From Acutalibacteraceae bacterium (lineage in GTDB: Bacteria > Bacillota > Clostridia > Oscillospirales > Acutalibacteraceae): 64,000 nt of DNA. Numbering within the stretch: the stretch's first letter is position 1; each line of letters begins with the position of its first letter. The stretch spans positions 890 through 64,889 of the forward strand of contig JAZSKN010000033.1 of NCBI GenBank assembly GCA_045534895.1. The letters run 5' to 3'. Positions 10,691 to 17,053 of the stretch are shown one piece after another. Under the pieces are notes generated by a model. That model did not search any database. It had not been told where the DNA came from and saw nothing but the letters and a program-made list of their open reading frames with translations. Made by a program: the position numbers and the translations under genes.

Positions 10691-11923
10691 ATGAAAAAAT
10701 TTATAAAAATAACCTTTGCGCTTTTATTGTTATTTTGCAGTTACGTATTTACTTCAATATATATAATGAGCGATAATTTTGCGGACAGCTACAAGCTTAA
10801 CCGTGGCGATGTTTTTAAAATGGACACGCCCATACCCATTACGGCAAGCTATAACGGGGTAAAGATAACTAAAGGCTTATCGGGTAAAAACGTGGGAGAT
10901 AATTTTGATATAGATCTTAAAATTTTTGGCGTTATTCCGTTTAGTACCGTAAGCGTAGAAATTGTAGACAGTATGTACGTACAGGTTTTGGGTGAGCCAT
11001 TTGGTATGAAAATATATACCGACGGTGTGCTTGTTGTAGGCAGTACGGATATTTTGACCGGTCAGGGCAAAATTAACCCCGCGTTAAATGCGGGTATAAA
11101 GGTTGGCGATTATATTAAAACGGTAAACGGTAAAACAATTACCTGCAACGAAGATTTATTACAGCTTGTAAGTGAATCACAGGGCAGTACAATGAAGTTT
11201 GAGGTTATTAGAGATGAGAAAATCTCTGTTTATAACGTGGAGCCTCAAAAAGAAAAGGACAGCGGCATTTACCGTATTGGTATATGGGTGCGTGACAGCT
11301 CGGCAGGTATTGGCACACTTACTTTTTATAGCCCGTCAAACAATGTGGTATGCGGCTTGGGGCACGGTATATGCGACACCGATACCGACGATTTATTAAA
11401 GGTATACAAGGGTGAGCTTGTAAAGGCGAGCATAATAGGCGTAGAAAAGGGTTCGTCGGGAAATCCCGGCGCGTTAAAAGGAAAACTAAGCTATGACAGC
11501 ATTGCTAACGTAAGCCTTAATTGCGAATGCGGCGTGTATGGTATTATAGGTGAAAAAGCAACGCAAAACAAATTAACCAAGGTGGCATTAAAGCAAGAAG
11601 TTAAAGACGGCTACGCACAAATTTTATGCACGGTAGAGGGCGAAACGCCTAAATATTATGACTGCGAAATTAAAAAAATTGGCGACAAAACCGCCAAAAC
11701 ACAAAATCTTATAGTAAAAGTAACCGACAAAGCGCTTATTTCAAAAACAGGCGGCATTGTGCAGGGTATGTCGGGCAGTCCTATTTTGCAAGATGGAAAG
11801 TTAGTGGGAGCCTTAACCCACGTGCTTGTGGATGACAGTAAAACGGGGTATGGAATTTATGCCGAGAATATGTTAGAAACGGCAGAGAGTGTGGCAGAGG
11901 AAGAGTTAAAACAAGCATCTTAA
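10691..11923 (+). CDS. spoIVB: SpoIVB peptidase (S55, sigma-K checkpoint protease)
   Basis: Signal anchor, PDZ ([16 protein letters not shown]), and an S55 core with GLGHGI and [20 protein letters not shown]. Confidence 0.85.
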   Translation: [410 protein letters not shown]

Positions 11924-11970
11924 ACATAAACAGCCGTGTATCTGCTCGGCTGTTTATACATATAATAATA

Positions 11971-11999
11971 TTGACAATATCACGATATCGTGATATAAT
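11971..11999 (+). promoter_or_regulatory. Promoter with an embedded 20-bp perfect palindrome (probable autoregulatory operator)
   Basis: TTGACA (11971-11976), 17 nt, then TATAAT (11994-11999). atatcacgat|atcgtgatat (11977-11996) is a perfect inverted repeat that fills the spacer. Confidence 0.6.
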
Positions 12000-12021
12000 G
12001 ATTTTGCAAAGGAGTGATGAT

Positions 12022-12276
12022 ATGCCTGTATTATCAAGATTTTACGGAATAATTATAAGAATGTATTTTCAGCAATCGGAGCATAATCCACCGCATTTTC
12101 ATGCAATTTACGGCGAGCATACAGCAGCGATTTGTATTGAAGACGGTGGTGTTTTGGATGGCGCACTGCCAAAGAAAGCCCTTGAAATGGTGCTTGAATG
12201 GCGCGAAATTCACAAGGCTGATTTACTAAAAATTTGGGAAACTCAGGAGTTTATAGAGCTTAGTCCTTTAGAGTAA
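12022..12276 (+). CDS. DUF4160-family small protein
   Basis: MPVLSRFYGIIIRMYFQQSEHNPPHFHAIYGEH matches the DUF4160 pattern. The AAAGGAG RBS is at 12008-12014. The track start at 11971 is actually the -35 box. Confidence 0.7.
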   Translation: MPVLSRFYGIIIRMYFQQSEHNPPHFHAIYGEHTAAICIEDGGVLDGALPKKALEMVLEWREIHKADLLKIWETQEFIELSPLE

Positions 12277-12288
12277 GGGGGATTTAGA

Positions 12289-14991: not shown

Positions 14992-15228
14992 ATGGATTAT
15001 GAACACTGGTTACAAAAGGCAATGGAAGGTATCAAAAGGACTCCTAATAACACAATTTTCCTTGTAAAAGAACTATTTCAGGGAACAGAGTGGAATGACT
15101 TGCCAAGAGGAGATAAACTGAGATTTGGTGCTTATTTTAAGAATTCGGTGAACGAAGGAACAATTCCAAACATTAATTATGTGGGCAAAGCAGCCAATAA
15201 CTCTGCTCAATATAAAAAATATAAATAG
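14992..15228 (+). CDS. Small soluble protein (DUF1413-like, from memory only)
   Basis: 78 aa. FLVKELFQGTEWNDLPRGDKLRFGAYFKNSVNEG resembles the DUF1413 pattern. It is tightly packed in the operon. Confidence 0.4.
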   Translation: MDYEHWLQKAMEGIKRTPNNTIFLVKELFQGTEWNDLPRGDKLRFGAYFKNSVNEGTIPNINYVGKAANNSAQYKKYK

Positions 15229-15239
15229 GAGACGATAAA

Positions 15240-16526
15240 ATGAAACAATTAACTTGTGAAATGTGCGGCGGAAATGAGATTTTAAAACAAGATGGTGTTT
15301 TTGTTTGTCAGTCTTGTGGAACAAAATATACCGTCGAAGAAGCAAAGAAAATGATGGTTGAGATTGATGGTCCCGTAGAAGTAAAAGGAACGGTAAAGGT
15401 TGACAATTCCCAAAATATAACTAATATGTCAAAAATGGCAGACGATGCATTTAATGGAGGCAATTTTCAACAGGCATATAATCTTTATCAATCTATTCTA
15501 CAAAATGATTACGAAAACGCTCATGCAACTTTTATGCTTGGGCTTAGTAGTGCATATTTGTCAACATTAGCAAATTTAAATGTTAATGAGTTGGTTCAAT
15601 CAATTAAAAAGTCATTTAAAATTATGGAAGCGAACGTAGCAGAAGAGGATTATCATCAGTTTGTTTTTTCCGTTTTACAACTGACAAACACGTTTTGTTG
15701 TTCTTTCCATGATTTAGCAGTTAAGCACCGTAATAAGTATCAAAGTTTAAAATCCACCGCAGAAGATTTTTGGGAACACACAAGAAAACTTTTGTTTTGT
15801 TTAGAAAATCTTTTATTACTATTGCCTGAGAAATTTTTGGCTAATGGTGAAAACGAGCCCGTAATATGGCGTGTCATAAGGAGCGCACAACAGTGTATTG
15901 ATGATATAAATGCCACACTGCAATATGTTAATGGAACTAAGGTTGTAGGCAGAGGTTTGTATGGTGGAGAAATACTTGGTGATAATTGGGTAGAAATTAA
16001 TGCGAGTTATGAAATTATAAAATATGCTGAATCTGCTGAAAATAGAATTAAAGCAATTAAAAATAAATTGCCATCTGTAATTAACCAAAAAAACAAAGAA
16101 AACAAAGCGAAAAAGGCAAGAGAAGAGTTTCTAAAAAATAATCCGGCAATAAAGAATTATCTAGAAAAGAAAATTAAAGATGCAGAAAGCGAGTTAAATA
16201 AAAATGAGAATAGACATACTGCAGCATTTGCGCTTTTAAATTCTATAGTTGCGTTAGGTCTTTTAATATTTTTTATTATATACACACCGCTATGGTGGTG
16301 GTCTCCGGATTCATCAGATATGGTGAGTTTTTTTCTTACGTTTATATGTCTAGTTTCTACATCTATTTTAAGTGTGCACTTTTGGAAAAGATTAAATGAT
16401 GAAAATAAACTAAATACCGAAAACAGAAGTTTATTATTAAAATATCAACCTATGTATCAAAATCCAATTGAATACGAAGAGGCTATAAGGAAAGAAATGT
16501 CAAAGGAGAATAGCGGTGAAGTGTGA
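15240..16526 (+). CDS. N-terminal zinc-ribbon, helical-repeat, C-terminal 2-TM protein
   Basis: CEMCGGNE..VCQSCGTKY zinc ribbon, a TPR-like helical middle, a coiled-coil, then two TM helices (AAFALLNSIVALGLLIFFIIY, FFLTFICLVSTSILSV). Confidence 0.55.
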   Translation: MKQLTCEMCGGNEILKQDGVFVCQSCGTKYTVEEAKKMMVEIDGPVEVKGTVKVDNSQNITNMSKMADDAFNGGNFQQAYNLYQSILQNDYENAHATFMLGLSSAYLSTLANLNVNELVQSIKKSFKIMEANVAEEDYHQFVFSVLQLTNTFCCSFHDLAVKHRNKYQSLKSTAEDFWEHTRKLLFCLENLLLLLPEKFLANGENEPVIWRVIRSAQQCIDDINATLQYVNGTKVVGRGLYGGEILGDNWVEINASYEIIKYAESAENRIKAIKNKLPSVINQKNKENKAKKAREEFLKNNPAIKNYLEKKIKDAESELNKNENRHTAAFALLNSIVALGLLIFFIIYTPLWWWSPDSSDMVSFFLTFICLVSTSILSVHFWKRLNDENKLNTENRSLLLKYQPMYQNPIEYEEAIRKEMSKENSGEV

Positions 16527-16701
16527 ATATAAAAACTGTGGACATAAAATGAAGATTGAACATATGGACAAAGGTGGATACCCACGTACATATAGATGTA
16601 ATGTATGCCAGGCATTTACAATTGTAGATAAAAGCGGTTTGACCAAACGTTATGATCCCGACGGAAAATTATTCACCGCAAAACCTGAAACTTTGAGTTA
16701 A
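16516..16701 (+). CDS. Small Cys-containing protein
   Basis: 61 aa with C..C..H and CNVC. It overlaps the previous gene by 11 nt and is the last gene of the operon. Confidence 0.4.
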   Translation: MKCEYKNCGHKMKIEHMDKGGYPRTYRCNVCQAFTIVDKSGLTKRYDPDGKLFTAKPETLS

Positions 16702-16888
16702 ATAACTAGAGGGACAAGTGACGGTTTTACGTCTTAGCTTATTGGTCCTAATATAACACGTATAAAAAATTTATATTTCCTATAATACAAAGAAATCGTG
16801 CCTAATGGGTGCGATTTCTTAGCGTTTAAGGGGAAATTTAGAAAATAATCGTCAAAAAACGTGTTGTATCTGCCTTGACACACTCGTG

Positions 16889-17053
16889 TCGGGAAGTCCT
16901 ATTTTGCAAGATGGTAAGCTTGTAGGGGCGCTGACACACGTGCTTGTTGATGACAGCAAGACTGGGTATGGAATTTATGCTGAGAATATGTTGGAGGTAG
17001 CAAACAACCTAGGGAACGACCTGCGTGTCATTCCGCAAAAGCAAGCGTCGTAA
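16889..17053 (+). pseudogene. Displaced 3' fragment of spoIVB
   Basis: It translates to [54 protein letters not shown]. The first 36 aa are identical to the end of the intact spoIVB. There is no start codon and no upstream catalytic part. Confidence 0.8.

Follow-up and report, generated by a model that had tools for sequence, protein, structure and literature searches.

The window analysed here is a stretch of 64,000 nucleotides from an Acutalibacteraceae bacterium (GenBank assembly GCA_045534895.1, contig JAZSKN010000033.1, positions 890 to 64,889 of the forward strand). In it the sporulation gene spoIVB is followed by an island of about 5 kb, which contains eight open reading frames (ORFs), and then by a second, orphan copy of its own 3' end (Table 1). 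The duplicated tail is probably the scar of site-specific integration by mobile elements that carry a triplet of large serine recombinases (LSRs) and use spoIVB as their attB. The product of the intact gene matches Peptidase_S55 in Pfam (3.6e-78) and also contains a PDZ domain; the S55 match extends to residue 395, and the ORF is whole with the island in place. Its best match in the PDB is the B. subtilis SpoIVB chain of entry 9lnf, 'SpoIVB peptidase' (4.8e-63), and Ser361 of the window protein aligns with the S378A position of that chain, i.e. with the catalytic serine. Exact-protein look-ups of the window SpoIVB and of the fucosidase encoded farther downstream found neither on record.

The second copy covers the last 51 codons of spoIVB and lies 5.1 kb from the first, in the same (direct) orientation. 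An initial annotation of this DNA, made from the sequence alone, had reported that a 36-codon tail of spoIVB is present twice, and the gap-free alignment of positions 11768-11878 with 16886-16996 confirms this. It had also counted about 18 nucleotide differences, all of them synonymous. Codons 361-396 (11771-11878 versus 16889-16996) in fact differ at 17 nucleotides, every one synonymous (15 at third positions and two at first positions of leucine codons), while the eighteenth difference, ATG versus GTG, belongs to the boundary codon at 11768/16886. The two tail copies thus differ at 16% of sites. Only 22% of the possible single changes in these 36 codons are synonymous, so that the chance of 17 synonymous changes out of 17 is about 6e-12 (0 of 200,000 simulations); therefore, both copies diverged while each was part of a working gene. 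After codon 396 the distal tails differ, and the orphan reading frame runs to its own stop at 17051-17053, both as originally described.

The upstream limit of the homology is sharp. It begins at the TG of the Met360 codon (11769/16887), directly 5' of the Ser361 codon, and 5' of this boundary identity falls to the random level (29 of 90 positions). Residues T353-M360 on the host side are invariant across distant SpoIVB proteins; together with SG-P, the motif TGGIVQGM forms the longest invariant run in a SpoIVB alignment that reaches down to 35% identity.

Table 1. Features of the spoIVB region in the window
Feature	Position	Strand	Basis or remarks
spoIVB, intact and chimeric	10691..11923	+	410 aa; ORF, Pfam S55 and PDZ, PDB 9lnf match, junction class
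B-left half-site (..ACAGGCGGCATTGTGCAGGGTA)	11745..11768	+	encodes invariant TGGIVQG(M); junction comparison
Inferred crossover dinucleotide TG in the Met360 codon, attL-type junction	11769..11770	+	sequence comparison
Replacement tail A	11771..11923	+	starts with catalytic Ser361 codon TCG; element-type signature TCGGGCAGTCC at 11771-11781
Hairpin (AAACAGCCG..CGGCTGTTT) directly 3' of tail A	11926..11958	+	read from sequence
Cargo: promoter, DhiT-like toxin and DUF2442/HTH_59 partner	11971..12723	+	Pfam, NCBIfam, promoter scan
DUF2442/HTH_59 partner	12289..12723	+	Pfam
Bidirectional terminator hairpin (AAAACCTCAAGTCT..AGACTTGAGGTTTT)	12737..12772	.	terminator and repeat scans
Cargo: XRE-family repressor	12771..13016	-	Pfam
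SPFH/Band_7_1 protein with double zinc ribbon	13116..14309	+	Pfam
Membrane protein	14313..14981	+	
DUF1413 protein	14992..15228	+	Pfam
Zn-ribbon/TPR/TM protein	15240..16526	+	Pfam
61-aa ORF	16516..16701	+	
Conserved non-coding right-end module	16742..16862	+	architecture repeated 3' of the third recombinase gene in L050
P-left arm of the element attachment site (GTTGTATCTGCCTTGACACACTC)	16863..16885	+	conserved before orphan tails
Orphan tail B	16886..17053	+	GTG, codons 361-396, own distal tail and stop; element-type TCGGGAAGTCC at 16889
Older-cassette cargo: alpha-L-fucosidase (-) and GH94 phosphorylase-like gene (+)	17433..21470	.	

Recurrent junctions and serine-recombinase triplets

Immediately 5' of the orphan copy, ending 1 nt before the TG, lies a non-coding stretch of 23 nt (GTTGKNYCT..TTGACACACTC), here called the arm, whose consensus across orphans is GTTGGTCCTATATTGACACACTC. 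About 20 other loci from genomes and metagenome contigs have the same arm in front of an orphan spoIVB tail (loci are referred to below by numbers of the type L001). It lies directly 5' of the orphan tails in L016, L028, L029, L030 and L032 and in 13 metagenome contigs, the further genuine cases recovered with a query of 19 bases spanning the junction; in these 13 the arm is conserved though the tails derive from far more distant hosts. With the exception of L001, all orphans begin at one and the same nucleotide behind this arm. The junction site is unique in the window, where none would be expected by chance, and a scan of IMG/VR for the arm-TCGGG site gave no match. Since TG is the only sequence common to the native (..GGTA-TG-AGCGG) and the element sites (..ACTCG-TG-TCGGG), the crossover dinucleotide is placed there.

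A looser second copy of the arm is found about 125 nt upstream, and a conserved hairpin (GAAATCGYRCC..GGTGCGRTTTC) lies between the two copies, as seen in a comparison of window positions 16742-16885 with L016, L029, L038, L041, L048, L050 and L051. The right-end module of the window holds the first P-left-like copy, TTGGTCCTAATATAACAC (16742-16759), and the hairpin (~16790-16822). The hairpin and the looser arm copy could be accessory recombinase sites or a terminator; Rfam has no family for the module or for the hairpin repeats described below. A separate observation concerns L040, which has two opposed orphan tails, at 434-586 (+) and 629-784 (-), each with its own arm and with the 3' ends about 40 bp apart, an arrangement that suggests an inversion or convergent insertions.

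The spoIVB locus was scanned in one genome per species, which gave 32 loci, mostly from metagenome-assembled genomes of Acutalibacteraceae from ruminant and human guts, with SpoIVB proteins 60-74% identical to that of the window. The conserved order is an HtrA-like protease, spoIVB, a variable stretch, GH16 paralogues and a GH4 gene. The variable stretch is 11.4 kb in the window and less than 100 bp in L015, L019 and L025, the island-free relatives that the initial annotation had proposed to look for, in which spoIVB runs straight into the conserved backbone. Together with L011 and L004, these loci represent unoccupied target sites, with a native-junction spoIVB and the backbone 0.06-0.5 kb on. 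An intact gene followed by an orphan tail is also present in L001, L016 and L029, while the contigs of L028, L030 and L032 contain the orphan only. Each locus has its own, unrelated DNA between gene and orphan: it consists of an arabinose operon with an AraC regulator in L029, of a 0.5 kb remnant of the window's island in L016, and of fucosidase and GH94 genes in L001, whereas in the window the latter genes lie after the orphan.

Intact genes fall into two junction classes, the native one reading ..CAGGGN ATG AGY GGN AGC CC and the element-type one ..CAGGGN ATG TCG GGN AGT CC. Inserted DNA follows each of the seven scorable TCG-class genes (six have 1.3 kb or more, L016 the remnant of about 0.5 kb plus orphan), whereas five of ten native, AGY-class genes reach the backbone within 0.5 kb (Fisher one-sided p = 0.04). 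The two classes are interleaved on the gene-body tree, where the sister pairs L001/L029 (body identity about 86%, from the distance in unweighted pair-group clustering, UPGMA), L002/L009 and L015/L017 differ in class. A switch from AGC to TCG at the catalytic serine cannot occur by point mutation through single viable steps. Furthermore, in L029 the tail of the intact gene is foreign, being typical of other Clostridia, and the orphan is clade-typical; the intact tail of L010 and the DNA downstream of it correspond to the orphan of L001 and its downstream DNA; and the orphan of L028 abuts the backbone. Because of the association of class with inserts, the alternation of class in sisters, the tails of L029 and the L010/L001 and L028 matches, these comparisons indicate that the tail of the intact gene is the imported one. 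The window SpoIVB is accordingly chimeric, with a host body and with codons 361-410 of the element type.

The orphan of the window has its own history. In L012 a single spoIVB passes at codon 360 into an orphan-type tail and then into the fucosidase and GH94 genes, and its identity to the window rises exactly at the junction, from 65% in the body to 90.5% in tail B and about 92% in the fucosidase/GH94 block; therefore, tail B, fucosidase and GH94 form an older imported unit. Against L012 and L001 the block is 85-92% identical at the nucleotide level and the spoIVB bodies only 65-73%. The 5 kb island with tail A appears to have been added ahead of this older cassette (tail B, fucosidase and GH94). 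The initial annotation had expected an empty site in which spoIVB ends in the orphan version and is followed directly by hairpin repeats: L012 agrees as to the tail, after which it has the fucosidase, and the repeats are missing. The idea of the orphan as a displaced tail likewise holds in part, the orphan itself being of the element type (TCGGG) and so belonging to the older cassette rather than being a pristine chromosomal tail. As the orphan junction consists of the arm and an element-type tail, it is attP-like rather than attR-like. A tail of type A in island-free relatives had been named as evidence to the contrary; L002 and L015 do have an A-like distal tail, but it follows a native AGC junction and is not diagnostic.

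Arrays may hold more than one spare tail. The window has two tails in all, L051 has three, and two orphans are present in each of L038 and L044. Recombinases are missing from most inserts at spoIVB.

The recombinases were found elsewhere. In seven contigs, three tandem LSR genes end 40-550 bp before the arm (L034 and L050 from metagenomes; L056, L059, L060, L061 and L100 from IMG/VR), in line with the suggestion that a search of databases might place such a block next to a recombinase. The proteins comprise 536-575 amino acids, and each has Resolvase, Recombinase and Zn_ribbon_recom domains. Those in positions 1, 2 and 3 are orthologous between elements at 49-60% identity but only about 30% identical to one another. 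In L100, L056 and L059-61 the arm is followed by TG and native-type AGCGG (in L100, ..ACACTCG TG AGCGGCAGTCC), and in L059-61 one identical arm is joined to three different host tails. On their sequence, these joints have the look of the attR of an active element.

The L056 contig of 36.9 kb encodes SSB, a YqaJ-type exonuclease, a RecD2-like helicase, a DNA methylase-like protein, a DUF3854 protein, a ParM-like ATPase, a sigma-factor-like protein and an XRE repressor; among the genes of these 36.9 kb (L056/L074/L082/L088), none was recognized as belonging to phage structure or to conjugation. A walk along IMGVR_UViG_2563367179_000007 reached the end of the contig at a DUF2971 gene before any spoIVB body, and spoIVB bodies in IMG/VR, scanned for element left ends, showed native sites only. 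A free attP, i.e. a spare tail on a phage or plasmid, was also sought; the matching 10 'Bacteriophage sp.' and plasmid records hold full-length native-junction spoIVB and represent bacterial DNA, as judged by direct inspection of four phage records and a Subdoligranulum record, three plasmid records being annotated as spoIVB. Separately, a pair of ABC_membrane_3 and DUF2971 genes (L088 1-1689; L093-L097) occurs at the end of a triplet element and also at the end of an unrelated myovirus-like prophage, where it adjoins SIR2-TPR and PIN/Phd genes. The DUF2971 protein was discarded as a marker of the triplet element, the pair being present in this unrelated tailed prophage too; it looks like roaming accessory cargo, possibly for defence.

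Site-specific integration and alternative explanations

In the integration model, elements with three tandem LSRs would use a site inside spoIVB as attB, with the crossover at the TG of the Met360 codon. The right half of the element attP would be a spoIVB copy that extends from the catalytic Ser361 codon to the stop, starting with TCGGGNAGTCC, and the incoming DNA would supply TCG-GGN-AGT from Ser361 on, versus the native AGC-GGN-AGC. After integration the host body would read into the element-borne tail, leaving the gene intact, and the previous tail would end up at its distal end, behind the left arm (GTTGG/TNYCT..TTGACACACTC). The proximal insert of the window (11771-16885) would have lost, or never had, the recombinase genes while keeping the tail, the right-end module and the arm, and it would be a non-autonomous cassette stacked in front of the older tail B/fucosidase/GH94 cassette. 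An excised circle would join 16885 to 11769 (..CCTTGACACACTC[G/A]TGTCGGGCAGTCCTATTTTGC), and the deletion product would join 11768 to 16887, body to tail B (..ATTGTGCAGGGTATGTCGGGAAGTCCTATTTTGC). An invariant left half-site would be available in many hosts, much as a tRNA gene is, and carriage of a tail would spare the function of the gene. The initial annotation had proposed an element that is directed at the 3' end of spoIVB, supplies a new tail and is by now decayed, mobilised in trans or exchanged by homology. This gains support from the recurrence of the arm, the LSR triplets, the island-free relatives, L012 and L029. The model is built on the observed anatomy of the junction, its recurrence, its linkage to LSR triplets and the tail replacement in relatives; from these we infer the exact crossover dinucleotide, catalysis by the triplet and the route by which the cassette of the window arrived, which could have been integration in trans or homologous import of a ready-made array.

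Several findings weigh against this model. Pfam detects no recombinase domain in the ORFs between the copies (11924-16885), as the initial annotation had stated, and tblastn of six LSRs extends the negative to the whole 64 kb. The island thus has no LSR gene inside it adjoining the att site; because LSR genes are absent from island and window, yet present in relatives with the same junction, we class the island as a non-autonomous derivative and not as a complete element. Of the island proteins, only the XRE repressor has a homologue in such a complete, recombinase-bearing element (44% identity to the product of L088 1749-1985). No left end (attL) of a recombinase-bearing element was recovered, and tail carriage by such elements is therefore deduced from the recombinase-less cases. 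The half-sites around the crossover have no inverted similarity above chance; instead they are directly similar (arm GTCCTATATTG versus tail GTCCTATTTTG, a score reached by 60 of 5000 shuffles), which is unusual for serine recombinase sites, although a heteromeric triplet may bind its sites differently. With the orphan attP-like and not attR-like in sequence, stacking by the recombinase itself is hypothetical, and the window has no distal native-type orphan 3' of the older cassette. Finally, L001 and L051 combine a native-type intact gene with downstream orphans, and in L001 the orphan (15431-15652) extends back to codon 342 and follows a terminator instead of an arm. Insertion at the spoIVB locus therefore also takes a second route, either homology-driven or illegitimate.

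Two direct-orientation copies of one coding segment 5.1 kb apart, and the longer armless orphan of L001, would fit a remnant of a second spoIVB paralogue or a tandem duplication that involved no mobile DNA. However, the homology starts at the same nucleotide in about 20 loci of different species, always behind the same non-coding arm, no trace of upstream spoIVB precedes the orphan, no relative has a longer second copy at the orphan position, and a divergence of 16% is far too high for a recent duplication within the genome. The paralogue, which the initial annotation had itself listed as a way to be wrong, is excluded by this sharp, motif-bounded junction, and we consider it extremely improbable. 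No more credible is the notion that the spare tail serves as a silent cassette from which the C-terminus of SpoIVB is switched in a programmed way, as in variation of the shufflon or pilin type. It would account for the strong divergence of the distal tails, both between copies and between species, and for the constancy of the last residues, LKxAS; but the copies are direct rather than inverted, their common part specifies the same protein sequence, there is no recombinase close by, other genomes have decaying orphans and each genome has unrelated cargo between its copies, and the idea was rejected because of the direct repeats, the identical shared protein and the decay. Capture of the Xer/dif or integron type was rejected as well, there being no such site or enzyme and serine recombinases being physically linked to the arm.

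Two further accounts accept the elements and concern the last step. The scar could have been made by a serine recombinase in another genome, after which the whole array was imported by homologous recombination, anchored in the spoIVB body or tail and in the downstream backbone, with no site-specific event in this genome; this overlaps with the integration model, only the last step being different, and is a tentative but real possibility. Parts of the region are far more alike between species than the core genes that flank it: the XRE gene is 92-97% identical versus 70% for SpoIVB, and the same imbalance is seen for the fucosidase/GH94 block (85-92% versus 65-73% for the bodies). Tails and cargo are re-assorted, the block following a different tail in each of L001, L012 and the window, and the conserved tail region of about 110 bp is a ready homology anchor. 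Import would explain the spread of the arm-bounded junction but not its origin, and the element of L059-61, freshly joined to three native tails, clearly shows that direct integration still goes on in the family. Canonical LSRs recombine only attP with attB (PMC3783163), and a second insertion into a resident attL is therefore not expected, which favours import and argues against the other account, in which the cassette is live and the recombinases of a complete element in the same cell recombine the attL-type with the internal attP-like site. We regard such mobilization in trans as unlikely. The island is indeed flanked, in direct orientation, by a B-left/P-right site and a complete P-left/P-right site; recombinase-less arm-bounded inserts outnumber recombinase-bearing ones; arrays of two or three tails exist (L038, L044, L051); the module of about 125 nt, present between two arm copies in L029, is missing in its close relative L028; and composite SCC islands with ccr-less elements offer a precedent (bioRxiv 10.1101/336396). 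On the other hand, the 64 kb window encodes no recombinase, sequences of a circle or of an empty site did not turn up, and the orphans of L016, L038b, L044a, L049 and L051 are decayed, as dead scars would be.

Cargo of the island and the region downstream

The hairpin directly 3' of tail A is likely a terminator that came along with the tail; it was unscored in the terminator scan of the window. It is followed by a sigma-70-type promoter with a palindromic operator (11971-11999; 12/12 match), in which TTGACA-17-TATAAT with a TG extension overlaps the palindrome ATATCACGATATCGTGATAT 5' of the gene pair for the DhiT-like toxin and its DUF2442 partner. The toxin is a DUF4160 protein with a likely start at 12022, and its NCBIfam match to toxin_DhiT (5.9e-23) is under the curated cut-off. 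Promoter, palindrome and gene pair have the typical layout of a toxin-antitoxin system predicted to be autoregulated.

The terminator hairpin that follows, AAAACCYCAAGTC-loop-GACTTGAGGTTTT, is repeated in the window at module boundaries (12737-12772, 17375-17417 and ~21510-21545) and also occurs directly 3' of the spoIVB tails in L001, L005, L009, L011 and L014. From this distribution it looks as if the hairpin travels with cassettes. The XRE repressor is 91-97% identical to those of L009, L014 and L038, and in L009 and L014 its gene lies directly 3' of spoIVB. For the remaining cargo (13116-16701) no NCBIfam match was found, and the end of the 61-aa ORF matches L016 at 84-90%. PADLOC gave no significant match to the cargo and recognised no defence system; a 428-aa cargo protein had one marginal sub-threshold match, to CARF_HEPN (E 0.006).

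Downstream of the orphan, positions 17085-17380 contain two copies of a GC-rich hairpin repeat of about 175 nt (GATTGCCACGC..CTCGCAATGACAT..). Sequences comparable in being of the repetitive extragenic palindromic (REP) type lie 3' of the spoIVB tails in L002, L003 and L016, and in L038 an IS200/RAYT-like ORF adjoins the orphans. The window repeats are separate small REP-like insertions outside the attachment site. Within the orphan reading frame (17009-17034), a GC-rich inverted repeat, GGAACGAC-CTGCGT-GTCGTTCC, is located after the shared ..GTAGGG and before the conserved LKxAS end. Similar short inverted repeats are present in the distal tails of L003, L010/L001, L012, L014, L016, L019 and L028, and they may reflect a small palindromic element that inserted in frame into the C-terminal linker. 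Beyond the older cassette, positions 23994-27418 on the minus strand encode three tandem GH16-domain paralogues of 365-371 aa, of which relatives have two to four copies.

Comparison with known systems

The closest parallel in working principle is the staphylococcal cassette chromosome (SCC, including SCCmec), which inserts into the 3' end of rlmH (orfX) with the reading frame kept and has more than one LSR per element, namely CcrA/CcrB or CcrC. Repeated insertion gives tandem arrays with repeated copies of the site, and there are psi-SCC elements without recombinase genes, which Ccr can move. The spoIVB elements resemble these islands in integrating at the 3' end with the ORF preserved (410 aa) and in forming tandem units that are separated by site copies, some of them without recombinase genes. 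SCC, however, duplicates merely about 15-18 bp at the very end of rlmH, whereas the spoIVB element carries about 155-170 bp (50-55 codons), including the codon of the catalytic serine. The spoIVB elements further differ in having three recombinases, in a sporulation gene as the target and in their hosts, which are gut Clostridia (Acutalibacteraceae and relatives). Their recombinases, compared with Ccr at the level of shared Pfam domains, form a triplet, and their site is not rlmH; they are not members of SCC. Recombinase-less (ccr-less) members are documented among composite SCC islands (bioRxiv 10.1101/336396). It is a doubtful extension of the parallel, but a consequential one, that the 3' end of spoIVB in gut Clostridia is a cassette platform comparable to SCC at rlmH, on which triplet elements and recombinase-less arm-tail cassettes are captured, stacked and exchanged at the catalytic-serine codon, with sugar-utilisation operons, toxin-antitoxin pairs and further genes as cargo, and with internal attP-like sites that stay recombinogenic. 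If it is true, the triplet could move single cassettes in trans, beyond what canonical single serine integrases do.

As to the enzymes, a parallel in organization is offered by the serine-integrase triplets of integrative and conjugative elements (ICEs) of Streptococcus. Both have three tandem LSR genes at one end, in the same orientation as the target, Resolvase, Recombinase and Zn-ribbon domains in proteins with orthologous positions, and a site inside a protein-coding gene. The streptococcal triplets disrupt mutT, traG and hsdM and have direct repeats of 2-8 bp (PMC4701971, Ambroset et al. 2016), whereas spoIVB is repaired by an element-borne tail, and no conjugation module was seen in the 36.9 kb noted above, whose genes serve replication, recombination and partition.

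In gene repair the spoIVB elements resemble e14 and phage 21 at icd of E. coli and other 3'-end integrases (at tRNA genes, fda, rpsI and guaA), which bring a diverged copy of the 3' end that keeps the gene functional and leave a displaced pseudo-3'-end at the far junction, with mostly synonymous differences. Those elements use tyrosine integrases and an identical core of 10-50 bp or more; the spoIVB elements, in contrast, are linked to serine recombinases, and a dinucleotide is the only obligatory shared sequence. Integration at a 3' end with a spare tail is indeed textbook knowledge for tyrosine integrases, with SCC as a minimal serine-recombinase version. Skin (in sigK), SPbeta (spsM), gin (gerE) and yin (yabG) share with the spoIVB elements the use of LSRs and a place inside sporulation genes; unlike spoIVB, which is complete with the island in place, those genes are split and rebuilt by excision in the mother cell. 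SpoIVB, moreover, does its work from the forespore. In the SPbeta paper on elements that interrupt sporulation genes, spoIVB is not mentioned, and our literature search found no paper combining spoIVB with a serine recombinase, attB or prophage integration. The island is not an integron: no integrase of the IntI kind is present, and the cassette ends are the arm and a gene tail, not attC.

As far as the window is concerned, the result is modest, namely a dead or dependent cassette. What is new in the family to which it points is the target, the most conserved stretch of spoIVB at a codon adjoining the catalytic serine; the enzyme set, a serine-recombinase triplet of a kind so far described as disrupting its target genes; and the length of the gene portion carried, 50 codons with the active-site serine among them, with stacked orphan tails in gut Clostridia. 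The outcome is natural chimeric SpoIVB proteases. The region downstream of spoIVB is a hot spot at which gut Acutalibacteraceae swap carbohydrate genes, such as the fucosidase/GH94 block and the arabinose operon, and the class of the serine codon, TCG versus AGC, gives annotators a simple marker for a second-hand spoIVB tail. A triplet with short sites could interest users of serine-integrase tools, especially if the sites are truly direct repeats. The element family is previously undescribed, and its principle is known from SCC, from the tyrosine integrases of gene 3' ends and from the triplet serine integrases.

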